From: a virus
Reading direction: 5' to 3' (one strand)
IMG/VR virus record: IMGVR_UViG_3300043640_000192
Span: 1-51,327 of that record
DNA length: 51,327 bases
The position numbers were made by a program, and so were the translations under genes. Under the pieces are notes generated by a model, which searched no databases, was not told the origin of the DNA, and saw nothing but the letters and a program-made list of their open reading frames with translations. Shown here one piece after another: positions 9,946 through 51,327 of this stretch. Each line of letters opens with the position of its first letter. Within the stretch, counting starts at the first letter, position 1.

Positions 9946-10854
9946 GTGTCAGCGACCGTCTTCTACTCCGGCGCCAGCGAGATCGCCACCCTCGCCAACA
10001 CGTTCAAGGTGAACGGCGTGGCCACCGACCCGACCGTGATCACGTGCGTCGTCACCGACCCCGCCGGCGGCCAGGTCACCTACGCCGTCACCGCCGGGCA
10101 GATCGTCCGCACCGGCACGGGTGTCTACACCCTGAACATCCCGTGCCTCCTCGACGGCATCTGGTCCTACGTGTGGATCGGCACCGGCACCGCCTCCGAC
10201 GTGGCCGCCGGGACGTGGACTGTCCAGCCCGTCACCGTCGGCCAGTATTACTGCACCGCCGAGGAACTGAAGTCGCGCCTGTCCATCACCGACACGTCCG
10301 ACGACGACCAGGTGATCCTCGCCTGCCAGGCCGCCTCCAGGTGGATCGAGGGCGCGACCGGCCGGTACTTCTGGCGGGGCACCGACACCCGCACCTACGT
10401 CCCGGAGAGCCTCTGGGGCCTGTCCACCGACGACCTGGTGTCCGTCACCACCCTGAAGACCGACGCGGACGGCGACGGGGTGTTCGAGACCACATGGACG
10501 GCGGGCACCGACTTCGAGCTGGCCCTGGGCGAGCGTGCCTACAACACGGGTGCGTCGGGGGAGCAGCGGCCCTACACCCAGATCCGGGTGACCGGCGGGA
10601 AGTTCTTCCCGTTCACGTGGGCGTTCACCCGCCAGGACCGCATCCAGGTCGTCGGCGTGTTCGGCTGGCCCGCGATCCCCCCCGCGGTCCGCCAGGCCGC
10701 CATGCAGCTCGCCGCCGACTATTTCAAGCTCAAAGATGCCCCGTTCGGCGTGGTCGGGTTCGGCGACATGGGCGTGGTCCGCGTCAAGCCGAACCCGCAG
10801 ATCTACGCCCTCCTGCAGCCCTACGTCCGCGGCAGCCGCAAGGTCGGGGTCTGA
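9946..10854 (+). CDS. Head-tail adaptor (gp6-like connector) with an extra ~100-aa N-terminal domain
   Basis: 'YCTAEELKSRLSITDTSDDDQVILACQAASRWIEGATGRYFW' is a typical gp6-type connector motif. It is preceded by an Ig-like looking N-terminal segment. Confidence 0.7.
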   Translation: MSATVFYSGASEIATLANTFKVNGVATDPTVITCVVTDPAGGQVTYAVTAGQIVRTGTGVYTLNIPCLLDGIWSYVWIGTGTASDVAAGTWTVQPVTVGQYYCTAEELKSRLSITDTSDDDQVILACQAASRWIEGATGRYFWRGTDTRTYVPESLWGLSTDDLVSVTTLKTDADGDGVFETTWTAGTDFELALGERAYNTGASGEQRPYTQIRVTGGKFFPFTWAFTRQDRIQVVGVFGWPAIPPAVRQAAMQLAADYFKLKDAPFGVVGFGDMGVVRVKPNPQIYALLQPYVRGSRKVGV

Positions 10855-11270
10855 TGGCCGTCCTGTCCGACGTCCGCGCCGCGCTCGCCGCCGCCGTCGA
10901 CGGCATCCCCGGCCTGCGCGCCACCGGATCCGTCACCGGCGAGGTCAGCCCGCCCATCGCCATCATCGTCCCCGCGCCCGGCACGTTCATCACCTACGGC
11001 GAGACCTTCGAGCCCGGCGTCGCCGGCTACCTCCTGGAGATCATCCTGCTCGTCTCCTACGCCGACGAGCGCAGCGGCCAGCTCCTCATCGACGGCTACC
11101 TGTCCGCCACCGGCCCCTCCTCGGTGCGCGCCGCCGTCGCTGCCGACCAGACCCTCGGCCACGTCGTGGACTACGCCGTCGTCACCACCGCCCAGACGTA
11201 CGGGCTGCTGGAGTGGGGTGGCGTCCAGTACCTCGGCGCCCGCCTGTCCGTCACGGCGGGGACCGAGTAA
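10854..11270 (+). CDS. Head-tail joining / tail-terminator-like protein
   Basis: ATGA overlap with the adaptor gene. 138 aa. Size and position fit a neck protein. Family not firmly recognised. Confidence 0.45.
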   Translation: MAVLSDVRAALAAAVDGIPGLRATGSVTGEVSPPIAIIVPAPGTFITYGETFEPGVAGYLLEIILLVSYADERSGQLLIDGYLSATGPSSVRAAVAADQTLGHVVDYAVVTTAQTYGLLEWGGVQYLGARLSVTAGTE

Positions 11271-11362
11271 TGCGGTGGCTGCGGCCTCCCGCTGAAGGGA
11301 GGTGGTGCCCGTGCGCTGGCTGCTAGTCCATCCAGGGCCGAATTTACTTCTCAGTCGCCGAC

Positions 11363-12370
11363 GTGTTCCGGGGCTGGTCCGAGGCGCTGACCGCCCTCGG
11401 CGAGCAGGTCATGGAATACAACCTCGACACCCGCCTCACCTTTTACGACGCGGCCATGATCGAGACCGGCACCTTCGACGATGACGGCCACACGCAGCTC
11501 CGCAAGGCCGTCACCCGGGAGCAGGCGGTCACGATGGCCGCCGACGGGCTCCTCGGCGCGGCCTACCGCTGGTGGCCGGACGTGATCCTCTGCACGTCGG
11601 CGTTCTTCACCCCGCCGTTCGTGCTGGAGGTCATGCGATCGCGCGGCCACAAGATCGTCATGCTGTTCACCGAGGGCCCGTACCAGACCGGCATGCAGCT
11701 GAAGATGGCGGAGTACGCGCACCTGTCCCTGGTGAACGACCCGTGCGACATAGAGAAGTACCGCGAACTCGGCCCGGCCGAGTACATGCCGCACGCCTAC
11801 CGCCCGGCCATCCACCATCCCGGCCCGGCGGTCCCGGAGCTGGCCTGTGACCTGGGATTCGTCGGTACCGGCTTCCCGTCCCGCATCGAGTTCCTCGAGG
11901 CGATGGACCTGGACGGGCTGGACGTGCTGCTGGCTGGGCACTGGCTGTCCCTGGCGGAGGACTCGCCGCTGCGCAGGCTCGTCGCCCACGACCTCGGCGA
12001 GTGCTTCGGCAACGACCAGGCCGCCGACGTGTATCGCTCGGCCCGGTGCGGCCTGAACCTGTACCGCCGCGAAGCCGAGGACGAGCACGCGGGCGAGGGC
12101 TGGGCGATGGGACCCCGCGAGGTGGAACTCGCCGCGTGCGGCACTTACTTCCTGCGGGACCCGCGGCCGGAATCGGATGAGCTGTTCCCGATGCTGCCCA
12201 GCTTCACCAGCCCGCAGGAGGCGTCGGAGCTGCTGCGCTGGGCGCTCGCCCACCCGCAGGAACGCGCCGAGGCTGCGCTGAAGGCCAGGTCCGCGATAGC
12301 CGGCCGCACGTTCGAAGCCAACGCCAGGTCATTGCTCCGGTTGCTCGACCGGCAGCCAGTCAGCAGGTAG
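11363..12370 (+). CDS. CgeB-like / Glyco_trans_1_2-type glycosyltransferase (body of the gene; the likely true start, GTG 11311, is in another frame)
   Basis: 'FVGTGFPSRIEFL', 'YRSARCGLNLYR', 'GPREVELAACGTYFL' resemble the CgeB/DUF3880 GT family. There is no SD before GTG 11363, whereas a strong SD precedes GTG 11311. Confidence 0.7.
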   Translation: MFRGWSEALTALGEQVMEYNLDTRLTFYDAAMIETGTFDDDGHTQLRKAVTREQAVTMAADGLLGAAYRWWPDVILCTSAFFTPPFVLEVMRSRGHKIVMLFTEGPYQTGMQLKMAEYAHLSLVNDPCDIEKYRELGPAEYMPHAYRPAIHHPGPAVPELACDLGFVGTGFPSRIEFLEAMDLDGLDVLLAGHWLSLAEDSPLRRLVAHDLGECFGNDQAADVYRSARCGLNLYRREAEDEHAGEGWAMGPREVELAACGTYFLRDPRPESDELFPMLPSFTSPQEASELLRWALAHPQERAEAALKARSAIAGRTFEANARSLLRLLDRQPVSR

Positions 12371-12811: not shown

Positions 12812-13525
12812 CCACTTTGCCAGGTATTCAATGGCGGCTTGCAATACAGCGATGTCGTCGCGGGCATAGCCGAGCATGGGATTGCACCGGTCGCACAGCA
12901 GGCCGCGGACCTGGCCAGTCGCGTGATCATGGTCGAGACTCAGCCCGCGCTGCGTGGTGCCGCCGCAGATGGCACAGACGCCACCCTGCGCGTCCAGCAT
13001 CGCCAGGTACTCGGCGTAGCCAACACCATGCTTACGCTCCCGCTTCCGGTTCACGACCTGCATGCTTTCGCGGTGCCGTCCATCAGCGCTGTAACAATGC
13101 TGAGCGCAGTAACGGAAGCGGCCCGGTAGCTTCGGCACTGGACAGCCTGGTATGCGGCAAGGTTCCTCGGCCGCCTTGCGGAGGTGCTCCAGCTTCCGCT
13201 GATAGGCGTCGTCCCGGTGCTCCTGGCAGAGTTTGGAGCCCTGGCCTTGAACCTTCAGGTTTCCGCAGCCGGTCACCTGGCACAGCTGCGGTGCAACCTT
13301 AGCTGCGCGGCAACGGCGGCATTCGCGATAGCGGCTGCGGAATGACTTCCCGCAGGTGATGCACTGGCGTTCTGCGCGCGTGCACTGGGCGCACAGATGA
13401 TTGGTGCCACGGAAGGCGGTGCCGCAGGCGGTGCATGACCGGTCGGCCGCCCGGCATTCGTAGCACTTGCGGTAACGACCGCGGAACCCCTTCCCGCAGG
13501 CGACGCAGTCGCGCTCAGTGATCAT
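12749..13525 (-). CDS. Endonuclease VII-type (HNH-like) nuclease with three N-terminal zinc-ribbon repeats
   Basis: C-terminal 'GGVCAICGG...LSLDHDHATGQVRGLLCDRCNPMLGY' is the EndoVII signature. The N-terminus carries 3x 'C-x2-CG-x-FR-x5/6-C-x2-C'. Confidence 0.8.
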   Translation of the reverse strand: MITERDCVACGKGFRGRYRKCYECRAADRSCTACGTAFRGTNHLCAQCTRAERQCITCGKSFRSRYRECRRCRAAKVAPQLCQVTGCGNLKVQGQGSKLCQEHRDDAYQRKLEHLRKAAEEPCRIPGCPVPKLPGRFRYCAQHCYSADGRHRESMQVVNRKRERKHGVGYAEYLAMLDAQGGVCAICGGTTQRGLSLDHDHATGQVRGLLCDRCNPMLGYARDDIAVLQAAIEYLAKWSGIQTAPLRIPLHFRGSVPS

Positions 13526-13685
13526 AACTGCGCTTCTCTGTCCTCATAGCGTGCGCGGTAGGCGGCGAGCGCGGCGGCCAGGACCGCGTTGACGGCCTGC
13601 CCGGTGCGCTTGGCGTGGTCTCTGAGCCACGACTCATCCCCCTCCGATGGCCGGAAGGGAATGGGCCGTCGCTTGTGCCGGTCGG
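13521..13685 (-). CDS. Ribbon-helix-helix-like ORF with no canonical start, in frame directly after the lipoprotein TGA (possible pseudogene or recoded gene)
   Basis: Translation read by hand: 'PTRHKRRPIPFRPSEGDESWLRDHAKRTGQAVNAVLAAALAAYRARYEDREAQL*'. High GC3. The stop overlaps the EndoVII ATG. Confidence 0.35.
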
Positions 13686-14246
13686 TCATGACGCGGCCCC
13701 GGTGAAGCTGGCGGCGTTGTAGTCGAACCCGGGGGTGATGGTCACGTTCAGCTGGCTTTCCCAGCTGGCCTGCTGCGCGTCGAACTCGAACAGGTAGGTG
13801 CCGTGCTGGCCCGGGGTGATGGTGCCGGTCGGGTTGTCGATGCCGGTGTCGAACACGGCCTCGAGCTGGCTGCCATCGGGCCCGGCGTTGGCGTCAACGG
13901 TGATCTCGGAGGCGTCGAGGCTGGTTTTGCCGGCGGTGACGCGGACCTTGAGGACGATGGCCGGGTCGCCGGGGTGGCCGCCTCCCGCGTACTGGCCGAC
14001 GGCGGTGACGGTGGCGGAGACGACGGCGACCTGCAGGCCGTCGCTGTAGGTCCAGCCGTTGGCGCGGCCGAACTGCGCCGGGCCGCTGGGCGTCGCCGCG
14101 GGGGTGGTGGCTGGCGCGGCTGACGTGGCCGCGGCGGCCGGGGCGGTGGCTGCGGACGTGGGGTGGCCGGTGGTGGCGCAGCCTGCGGCGGTGAGCGCCG
14201 CTGCGGCGGTGAGCATGAGGCCGGCGGTGATCCTGGTGCGCTTCAT
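13686..14246 (-). CDS. Secreted lipoprotein (lipobox LTAAG|C), beta-sandwich-like
   Basis: 'MKRTRITAGLMLTAAAALTAAGC' is a signal peptide plus lipobox, followed by an Ala/Pro/Thr linker. The gene is on the reverse strand inside the tail operon. Confidence 0.7.
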   Translation of the reverse strand: MKRTRITAGLMLTAAAALTAAGCATTGHPTSAATAPAAAATSAAPATTPAATPSGPAQFGRANGWTYSDGLQVAVVSATVTAVGQYAGGGHPGDPAIVLKVRVTAGKTSLDASEITVDANAGPDGSQLEAVFDTGIDNPTGTITPGQHGTYLFEFDAQQASWESQLNVTITPGFDYNAASFTGAAS

Positions 14247-49482: not shown

Positions 49483-50166
49483 ATGTTCTATGCCACATCG
49501 CTATCTGGTGAGCGCATCCCAGCTACACCGGAAATGCAGGCGGTCTGCCCGACCTGTAGCGCAGCGGTGGCGCCCAAGTGCGGGCAGATCGTAGCTTGGC
49601 ACTGGGCCCATCACGCACGCGAGGACTGCGACCCGTGGGCCGAGTCGGACACCACATGGCACCGGGACTGGCAGGCGTCCGCACCGCCTGGCCGCCGTGA
49701 AGTCGTCATGGGCCCGCACCGCGCAGATCTCGTCACCGCAACCGGCTGGGTTGTCGAGCTACAGCACAGCGGCATCTCCCCGGCGGAGATCGCCGAACGG
49801 GAAGCGTTCTACGGCGCCCGGATGATCTGGCTGTTCGACGCCTCCGAGGCCGCGACCGCAGGCCGGCTCGACATCCGGTACCCGTCAGGCGGCTACTTCG
49901 GCGACCCGGGCGAGTACGTCACATTCCGGTGGAAGCACCCGCGCAAGTCGATCGCCTGCTGCCAGCGGCGCGTGCTCCTCGACCAGGGCGATGGCTGGCT
50001 GCTGTCAATCCGCCGAATTTATCCGCATGGCCGCTGCGGTGGATGGGGCTACATGTTCCCGGCCGAAGATTTCCGCAGGTGGATAGACGGCATCCAGGAC
50101 GATGCACACCGTTCCCACGGTGTGACGGTCCACGCTGACAGCGTCCGCGATAGCACCGACGGCTAG
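49483..50166 (+). CDS. CoiA-like competence-family nuclease
   Basis: 'CPTCSAAVAPKCGQIVAWHWAH...ESDTTWH...HRADLVTATGWVVELQHSGISPAEIAEREAFYGARMIWLF' matches the CoiA family pattern. Confidence 0.6.
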   Translation: MFYATSLSGERIPATPEMQAVCPTCSAAVAPKCGQIVAWHWAHHAREDCDPWAESDTTWHRDWQASAPPGRREVVMGPHRADLVTATGWVVELQHSGISPAEIAEREAFYGARMIWLFDASEAATAGRLDIRYPSGGYFGDPGEYVTFRWKHPRKSIACCQRRVLLDQGDGWLLSIRRIYPHGRCGGWGYMFPAEDFRRWIDGIQDDAHRSHGVTVHADSVRDSTDG

Positions 50167-50703
50167 CTTCTGAGCGTGAAGCCGCTGGATGTCCAGCACC
50201 TTCTCCGGGGTCAGCCTGGTACGCCTCGTGTTCCGCGCCTGCTGGGCTGAGGTAGCCCACCGGCAGTTCCCGGGCTCGTAGTTCCCGTCGTTGTCGATCC
50301 GATCGAGCGTCATGCCGCGTGGCTTCTCGCCCATGTCTGCCAGGAACGCCGGATATTCACGCCACGCCTCGCAGACCGTGATGCCCCGGCCACCCCAGTC
50401 GGCCCAGCGGGGATGGTCCGGGTTGGTGCACCGCCCGATCATGTTCTGCCAGCTGTAGTAGGTCGGCGTCCTGCCAGACCGCGTCGCCAGCCCGTGCTTG
50501 GTGGAACGCGCGGCTGTCACCTCACGCCGCAGGCAGCCACAGCTCATGGTGGTGCCGCGCTGCAGCACCGAGCCACGGATGATCTTCCCGGTGCCGCACT
50601 CGCACCGGCAGCGCCAGCAGGCGTCACCTTTCAATGTGAAGCCGTACGACAGCACCAGCAGTCGGCCGAAACGCTGTCCGACCAGGTCTTTCCGCAGGGA
50701 CAT
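50005..50703 (-). CDS. HNH-type homing endonuclease with C-terminal HTH
   Basis: 'LVGQRFGRLLVL...CRCECG...YYSWQNMIGRCTNP...TLDRIDNDGNYEPGNCRWAT'. 162-nt convergent overlap with the CoiA-like gene. Confidence 0.7.
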   Translation of the reverse strand: MSLRKDLVGQRFGRLLVLSYGFTLKGDACWRCRCECGTGKIIRGSVLQRGTTMSCGCLRREVTAARSTKHGLATRSGRTPTYYSWQNMIGRCTNPDHPRWADWGGRGITVCEAWREYPAFLADMGEKPRGMTLDRIDNDGNYEPGNCRWATSAQQARNTRRTRLTPEKVLDIQRLHAQKLAVGAIADAVSVDRHTVGTVCIVLDAVYPPAEIFGREHVAPSTAAAMRINSAD

Positions 50704-50825
50704 ACCCGAATTATAGGGGTTGCTCGCTGGCTGCCACTGACCAAACGCCAATGACGCTCGGAAGGGGGTGGCCATGAGCCTGGTAGACCGCATCAACGCC
50801 GAATTCACTGAGGCACGCACCATCG

Positions 50826-51327
50826 GTGGGGTCCCCTGGCGATTACCGCCCCTGGGACAGTCCCTACGTCAGGTTCGACGCTGGCGGCCCGGCCCACCCA
50901 TCGGAGGCCACGGGCGGCGTTGAGGCGTCGCTGCGCCTCTCGCCGCTGTACTCAGGCACGCGGCTGCTCGCCGACGCGGTCGCCTCCCTGCCGCTGCAGC
51001 AGTACCGCAAGCTGCCGGGCGGCAAGCCGCAGCGGCTGGACACGCCCTCGCCGCTGCTGGCCAGGCCGTCGGCGACCGGCACCGTGTACGACTGGCTGTT
51101 CCAGGCGATGACGTCGCTGGTGCTGCAGGGCAACGCGTGGGGCTACATCACCGGCCGCGACGGCTACGGCTACCCGACCGGAATCGAGTGGCTCCCGGCC
51201 GAGCGGGTCCAGGTGCTGGATGACCCGGACCAGCCGTGGAACCCGATGCGGGCCCGGATCTACTTCTACGGCCGGCAGATGTCCCGCGACGAGCTGTTCC
51301 ACATCCGGGCGTTCAGCGTGCCGGGGA
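50826..51327 (+). CDS. Portal protein, N-terminal part (continues at 118-995 after circular closure). Conservative GTG start; see the finding on the ATG at 50774.
   Basis: Frame is continuous with ORF 3..995 through the terminal overlap. Peptide '...EASLRLSPLYSGTRLLADAVASLPLQQYRK' is typical of HK97-family portals. The frame opens after TAG at 50784, and the first in-frame start is GTG 50826, which has no SD. Confidence 0.75.
   Translation, partial: MGSPGDYRPWDSPYVRFDAGGPAHPSEATGGVEASLRLSPLYSGTRLLADAVASLPLQQYRKLPGGKPQRLDTPSPLLARPSATGTVYDWLFQAMTSLVLQGNAWGYITGRDGYGYPTGIEWLPAERVQVLDDPDQPWNPMRARIYFYGRQMSRDELFHIRAFSVPG
51211..51327. repeat. Terminal overlap copy 2 (identical to 1-117)
   Basis: Same 117-nt string as the window start. 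Confidence 0.95.

Follow-up and report, generated by a model that had tools for sequence, protein, structure and literature searches.

The window analysed here is a complete virus record of 51,327 nt from a soil phage, with terminal repeats and a GC content of ~70%. It encodes head genes, a sugar-enzyme cluster, tail genes and a serine integrase, and this gene content, together with its relatives, identifies a temperate phage of high-GC actinobacteria. The nearest cultured phages share about 41-44% terminase identity at most. One glycosyltransferase (GT) gene sits in the head-tail operon, close to two further GTs, an epimerase and a methyltransferase; a search of 50,697 phage records, cultured phages included, returned no GT match. 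It is directly preceded by a gene for a 138-aa protein (10854..11270, + strand) whose TAA overlaps an ATG (TAATG). The same gene directly precedes the intact GT in the sister locus L472 and likewise in L325. Given that a Pfam search with the 138-aa protein gave no match, its neck/tail-completion-like role is assigned from position only.

The start codon and the body of the GT are in different frames, and this frame break, pointed out in the original prediction, is real. An extended Shine-Dalgarno (SD) sequence (11294..11306, + strand; core GGAGGTG at 11298-11304) is the strongest found in the window, at -18.4 kcal/mol with the anti-SD, and it precedes GTG 11311; both this start codon and the SD first placed at 11294-11302 were confirmed. 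The frame of GTG 11311 reads VRWLLVHPGPN, followed by TTA and a dead end, with 57 codons to the TGA at 11482-11484. The GT frame is open from 11327 to 12370, and its first canonical start, GTG 11363, lacks an SD. Three parts of the gene, all on the + strand, can be distinguished: a first coding segment of 11 codons encoding strand 1 and a loop (11311..11343), which ends in the take-off codon AAT (11341-11343); a 4-nt coding gap, TTAC (11344..11347), consisting of the slow codon TTA (11344-11346) and C 11347, again at the positions originally given; and the GT body (11348..12370). The joined product has 351 aa, as does the sister protein P0121; gene callers annotate a 335-aa form (P0001).

The first 11 codons are part of the protein. 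GTG 11311 is the true start, and homologues start MRWLLVHPGPNF, with N-termini that read MRWLLVHPGPNFSVADV. The body matches PF13524 (54.6 bits, cut-off 25; E 1.5e-14) and is thus a CgeB-like GT, as had been suggested. A PDB sequence search with the GT gave nothing useful. A model of the intact homologue P0002 (pLDDT 90.5) matches MshA, BshA and sucrose-phosphate synthase (E about 1e-11), with residues 2-7 as strand 1 of the GT-B fold, in agreement with the N-terminal Rossmann strand anticipated earlier, and residues 11-27 as helix 1. A protein begun at 11363, where the start is annotated, would therefore lack part of the core of this fold. The GT-B fold and the position in a head-tail operon are common to the window GT and other PF13524/CgeB-like enzymes, including the virion-glycosylating enzymes of mycobacteriophages such as Che8 (as cited in PMC11256854). 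By gene position and this mycobacteriophage precedent, the enzyme probably glycosylates virion proteins.

The TTAC gap and its intact sister allele

The original prediction held that one extra T shifts the frame and that TAC is then read as Tyr. An intact sister allele points to a different insert. L472 is the DNA of the intact 351-aa member of the database cluster of the window's protein; the two sequences agree at ~97% of the first 700 nt, and their bodies differ at 10 positions within the initial 408 nt. Where L472 reads CCG AAC TTC, the window reads CCG AAT TTA C TTC, so the extra DNA is 4 nt and not one T. The same change separates a second pair, L376 (CAT TTA C TTC) and its intact sister L337 (CAC TTC). 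At the protein level, exactly three residues lie between PG and SV in 113 of 114 proteins with an N-terminus, and the single exception is itself an in-frame TTA gap. The intact sister and the 113 homologues pass directly from N to F, and given the 4-nt insert and the absence of an extra residue, the Tyr reading is probably wrong. What stands of the proposed junction is the rare TTA as the recoding point, without the one-base skip. The flanks of the gap are adjacent in intact homologues, with no added residue, as in UUA bypass of the phiHau3 type. The triplet TAC (11345-11347) is most likely where the P-site tRNA lands, and not a decoded codon.

The window record is a metagenomic assembly, in which a sequencing or assembly error could produce such a junction. 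The chance of this is negligible: AAT-TTAC-TTC is also present in L024 (JGI, 62% aa identity) and L025 (Logan, 76% aa identity), and CAT-TTAC-TTC in L376, so that phages which have diverged share the TTAC junction in assemblies made independently by JGI and Logan. Chance occurrence of the TTA can also be set aside, since none of the 1003 Leu codons in the listed genes of the window (12,639 codons, the 55-aa ORF described next not included) and 6 of about 3,560 Leu codons in homologous GT bodies are TTA. That 55-aa RHH-like ORF (13522-13689, - strand; ATG at 13689) ends CAG TTA TGA, with TTA as its last sense codon and a stop that overlaps the ATG of an EndoVII gene (13525). This is the third in-frame TTA of the phage, in a placement like that of the UUA in the adpA uORF.

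Gaps in glycosyltransferase and portal genes

The window allele belongs to a family. An insert is present in 13 of 102 distinct GT 5´ ends and opens with an in-frame TTA in 12 of them. GT gap lengths are 4, 6, 7, 15 and 18 nt, and the two longest gaps contain an in-frame stop. The portal gene has a break of the same kind, as had been predicted: gaps were found in 30 of 54 distinct portal 5´ ends, this phage among them. Its portal gap is 7 nt, TTACCGC (50843-50849, within the feature 50774..50849, + strand), downstream of an ATG at 50774 that follows a strong SD; the take-off codon is CGA and the landing triplet, CGC, is synonymous.

A relation between the two edges of the gap runs through the family. 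The final triplet of the gap and the take-off codon are synonyms in 27 of the 36 distinct GT and portal gaps (4-18 nt, TTA-starting); in the remaining 9 they agree at two of three bases, and a poorer match occurs in none. With permuted take-off codons the mean was 6.3 synonymous cases and the maximum 15 in 50,000 permutations; P values from such comparisons overstate the effect, because related alleles are not independent samples. Gap boundaries were drawn by eye from consensus alignments and afterwards checked against the sequences. Gap lengths are spread over the three frames (16/12/8). Of the 31 take-off codons other than Trp, 27 have T or A at the third position, where landing triplets mostly have C. 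This bias toward weak pairing before the gap and stronger pairing after it is a signature of P-site re-pairing. A 4-nt gap that opens with TTA can only end in a TAN landing triplet. All four types of 4-nt gap have N-A-T before the TTA (AAT, CAT, and TAT twice). Both TAT types have a fully cognate landing (TAT to TAC or TAT); in the window allele, AAT to TAC falls short of a strict landing match, with 2 of 3 bases.

Two inserts were treated separately. L407, with an 8-nt insert that lacks TTA on a contig with many fragmented genes, is a probable error and was left out. L394, from a Micromonosporaceae genome bin, was counted as an insert and kept out of the TTA statistics; its 7-nt insert (9964 onward) follows TTC, opens with TAG and closes with GTC, and the allele is possibly a stop-hop version. 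A scan with a degenerate DNA pattern (TTA after HPG) was too loose, and its one true locus, L233, duplicated L026.

Other loci show related arrangements. In L428 (6094 onward), a terminase segment restarts after a very strong SD (-20.4 kcal/mol) and contains AAA TTA AAA in the Walker A motif (SRQNGK), likely a 6-nt hop in a third gene. The portal 5´ end of L452 has two gaps, the 7-nt gap of the window and an apparent 2-nt slip from TTT to TTT at TTT TTA GC; L298, L300, L465 and L466 also have two gaps each. The intact GT alleles of L327, L351 and L357 (possibly also L393) apparently start with ATT after an SD, perhaps another way to damp the same gene.

Purifying selection acts on the bodies of gap alleles as it does on intact ones. 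The dN/dS of the window body against other gap alleles is 0.27-0.33, within the 0.12-0.34 seen for gap alleles in general and close to the 0.21-0.28 of intact pairs.

Start-site signals and the origin of the gap

A strong start-site SD is strongly associated with the gap in both genes. With the threshold set at -16 kcal/mol or stronger, such an SD stands before 12 of 13 gap alleles of the GT and 2 of 89 intact ones; for the portal the counts are 28 of 30 with a gap and 0 of 24 intact. In many intact GT alleles the start overlaps the stop of the preceding gene instead. From these sequences, the strong SD may either stimulate the hop or only compensate for its losses. A second SD-like element lies inside the first segment, which is synonymously recoded relative to the sister allele and contains CCA GGG, a candidate mini-SD and/or hairpin arm. 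In the window the order is AGGG (11334-11337), CCG, AAT, TTA. A mini-SD triplet (GGG/GGA/AGG) is found 5-7 nt before the landing triplet in 11 of 12 GT alleles, against a background of 18%, although it is partly forced by a Gly codon; the spacing holds for Pro take-off with a 7-nt gap and for Asn/His take-off with a 4-nt gap. The mini-SD is not enriched at portal gaps (5 of 27).

RNA structure is a further candidate signal. CCA at Pro8, present in 11 of 13 gap and 4 of 89 intact alleles, permits a shared hairpin. For the window allele, 20% of synonymous recodings give an equally stable 5´ hairpin, and fold z-scores are near zero, so that the hairpin is at most a candidate stimulator. Separately, a 6-bp hairpin (11285-11302), in which CCTCCC from the relic of a nuclease gene described below can pair with GGGAGG, can occlude the start-site SD. 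Judging from the sequence, ribosomes arriving from the relic ATG 11270, or from the nuclease gene in relatives, would open it.

The region between the 138-aa gene and GTG 11311 retains traces of how the gap arrived. The window contains, in order, the original start of the sister, the tail of an HNH_3 nuclease gene, the SD, and the recoded first codons with the gap. The first relic, M-R-W-L (ATG CGG TGG CTG; 11270..11282, + strand), is identical to the start of L472; its ATG is coupled to the upstream stop and opens a 19-codon ORF ending at TAG 11324-11326. The second (11277..11295, + strand; ..A-A-S-R-stop) matches the end of the L024 HNH gene (PF13392, E 1e-10) at 19 of 19 nt, and similar ends are found in L026, L406 and L410. 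An HNH_3 gene lies directly upstream in 4 of 13 gap alleles (L024, L026, L406 and L410) and in 0 of 89 intact alleles; sister L472 has neither HNH gene nor gap, and the window retains the HNH tail only. The cassette is nearly identical in L024, whose GT falls in another clade (62% identity to the P0002 query, compared with 77% for the window GT).

We suggest that a mobile 5´ cassette, consisting of an HNH gene, the SD, recoded first codons and the gap, replaced the start of an intact allele, and that the HNH gene would later have been lost. Initially, the gap would probably have destroyed the target of the nuclease. This origin fits a homing cassette like that of MobA and gene 60 with the nuclease later lost. 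Most gap alleles now have no HNH gene upstream, and the gap label on a GT body tree required 10 changes, at least 8 of them forced, in a quick tree search. Because recoded residues in the other alleles follow the local clade with no HNH left, repeated origin or re-copying of gaps is also likely.

The association with HNH genes does not extend to the portal. Of 22 portal 5´ ends tested, only that of the window has an HNH gene upstream: a 248-aa ORF with HNH-like motifs (50005-50751, - strand), divergent and just upstream of the portal start, an arrangement that resembles a nuclease next to its gap and is absent from the 21 other loci. Given portal gaps without HNH, a general requirement for HNH was rejected. 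Upstream HNH genes in L325, L326, L336 and L361 were also rejected, as the matches came from a non-HNH query. In P0050 (560 aa), a GT homologue, a C-terminal HNH_3 domain is fused in frame.

A proposed short UUA-triggered hop and its alternatives

We consider it probable that the GT is expressed by a programmed short translational bypass, a 4-nt hop triggered by UUA. In this model, ribosomes would initiate at GTG 11311 from the unusually strong SD, read 11 codons, and pause with the rare UUA in the A site, while AAU in the P site pairs through a weak U-G wobble. The peptidyl-tRNA-Asn would then release, the ribosome would slide 4 nt, and the tRNA would re-pair at UAC through positions 2 and 3, possibly aided by anti-SD pairing to the AGGG 7 nt before the landing triplet. 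Decoding would restart at UUC to give the normal 351-aa GT-B enzyme, ..PGPNFSV.., with the junction peptide ..GPNFSVADVFR. Ribosomes that decode UUA instead would make the 57-aa dead-end peptide. The first-position mismatch (U-U) at the landing triplet of the window allele counts against the hop.

The closest competitor, and an unlikely one, is an RF2-like +1 shift, in which tRNA-Asn slips from AAU to AUU at the slow UUA and UAC is read as Tyr. The product would have one extra residue in the loop after strand 1, with the junction peptide ..GPNYFSVADVFR. At the prfB (RF2) +1 site, an SD-like run lies 3 nt before the P-site codon. The window similarly has AGGG 3 nt 5´ of AAU, followed by a slow A-site codon and then C, and some weight is left to the +1 shift because of this resemblance. 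The junction also lies in a loop (residues 8-10 of the model) that might accommodate one residue, and the apparent 2-nt slip in the L452 portal indicates that very short slips may occur in this family. However, good +1 re-pairing is not available: AUU mismatches the Asn anticodon at the middle position, and in alleles that combine a TTAC gap with CAT or TAT the mismatch extends to two positions. The hop is favored since the CAT and TAT tRNAs cannot re-pair at ATT and can do so at TAC or TAT four bases on. In addition, the single extra residue occurs in none of the homologues, and gap lengths in all three frames are inexplicable by a +1 rule. Compared with prfB, the A-site codon is a sense codon and homologous alleles skip 4-18 nt.

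It is improbable that the allele is dead or truncated, either because the cassette inactivated a dispensable gene, or with translation starting at GTG 11363, or by read-through of TAG 11324 from ATG 11270. A virion-modifying GT may be dispensable, gene callers do report the 335-aa form, the relic ATG shares the frame of the body, from which a single stop separates it, and the window allele is young, so that selection on this allele alone is not measurable. However, a product starting at 11363 would lose strand 1 and half of helix 1 of the model, from a GTG without an SD, and TAG read-through would substitute 22 unrelated residues. Gap alleles of separate clades keep open bodies under the constraint described above, and the same kind of gap is carried by more than half of the distinct alleles of the essential portal gene.

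Correction at the RNA level, by transcriptional slippage or excision, is very improbable: the TTT run at the junction has three T residues, far below known slippage runs, an intron of four nt is impossible, and neither process predicts an in-frame TTA at the start of the gap or a codon-level match at its end. A tRNA with a four-base anticodon was rejected as an explanation, with no tRNA gene found in the 51,327-nt window and variable gap lengths.

The hop proposed for the window GT resembles UUA-initiated bypass in the large terminase gene of Streptomyces phage phiHau3, which has two 10-nt gaps and is backed by mass spectrometry, and in the StrepC.1 and S. catenulae prophage terminases, the latter with a 7-nt gap (PMC10732093; Smith et al., 2013, as cited there). 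In phiHau3, as in the window, where TTA is codon 12, an in-frame UUA opens a short frame-breaking insert, intact homologues join the two flanks directly, and the gene has a role in making virions; SD-like and stem-loop signals have been proposed for phiHau3 and are candidates in the window. By this analogy the mode of action is probably that of phiHau3, though shorter and imperfectly matched. The window gap differs in its length of 4 nt, in a landing triplet that overlaps UUA and agrees with the take-off codon at only 2 of 3 bases, and in its place at codon 12 of a GT gene, with the start-site SD as the strong SD. It is HNH-linked, no Streptomyces host is indicated, and the family has at least 36 variants, compared with UUA bypass in 3 genes among 100 terminases (PMC10732093).

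With the 50-nt bypass of T4 gene 60 and its MobA HNH cassette (bioRxiv 10.1101/2022.08.31.505936; PMC5009743), the window shares a mobile unit of HNH gene, recoded start-region copy and bypass gap, near-identical relatives without the unit, and frequent loss of the nuclease while the gap stays. It also shares a candidate mini-SD 5-7 nt before landing, the spacing described for T4 (bioRxiv 10.1101/2022.08.31.505936). In contrast to gene 60, the A-site codon is a rare sense codon and not a stop, the gap is 4 nt and not 50, there is no room for a take-off stem-loop, and the gene is not split into two proteins. The window gap is thus not a member of the gene 60 family, and has a MobA-type cassette history. 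The 81 bypass elements of Magnusiomyces capitatus mitochondria, as reviewed in PMC5009743, are likewise short inserts with an avoided codon at the start and a matched or near-matched landing at the end; in the window, however, the ribosome is bacterial, the codon is rare but assigned, and gaps occur only at the 5´ end after a strong SD.

The hop may be constitutive, or a switch set by the host supply of UUA tRNA. By analogy with phiHau3 (PMC10732093), efficient UUA decoding would switch the allele off, and a scarce tRNA would allow the hop. Candidate-host DNA, prophages included, has TTA at 2 of 955 Leu codons, and because TTA is rare there too, a constitutive hop at a low-abundance tRNA seems no less likely than a developmental switch, a role for which in-frame 6-nt gaps would be ill suited. 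Homologues occur in genomes labelled Trebonia, Micromonosporaceae, Amycolatopsis, Klenkia and others, with no Streptomyces among the 17. A first genome scan for the host gave no match, and a portal profile search matched 0 of 401 in the class, with one distant match in the family of the Trebonia genome. With a narrow search pattern, tRNA-Leu(UAA) was found in 2 of 5 candidate genomes; this count is silent on regulation. Control of the bldA type may be limited to Streptomycineae (PMC4255298).

A broader reading is that, in a large clade of soil actinophages, UUA-triggered sliding over 2-18 nt near gene starts is routine and re-evolvable. The extended start-site SD would be a required stimulator, for example through a ribosome queue behind the stalled one, and non-Streptomyces hosts with a condition-dependent UUA tRNA would switch the portal and virion-glycosylation genes together. 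We regard this as tentative and rather doubtful as a whole. If it holds, AAU-to-UAC would be among the shortest natural bypasses, working without a cognate landing codon. If host UUA supply is regulated, bldA-like control would extend beyond Streptomycineae, which was considered doubtful (PMC4255298).

In our literature search, of incomplete coverage, gaps of this kind were not described for any GT or portal gene. Natural bacterial bypassing has so far rested on T4 gene 60 and three UUA-containing terminase genes. The window GT offers a minimal 4-nt case, for which a nearly identical intact allele serves as control. Throughout this phage group, portal and GT proteins come out truncated from gene callers. 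The 36 gap designs in two genes form a natural allelic series that varies in take-off codon, in the length of the gap, in the landing match and in the strength of the SD; with it, the rules of hopping can be put to the test, as can the line that divides bypassing from +1 frameshifting.
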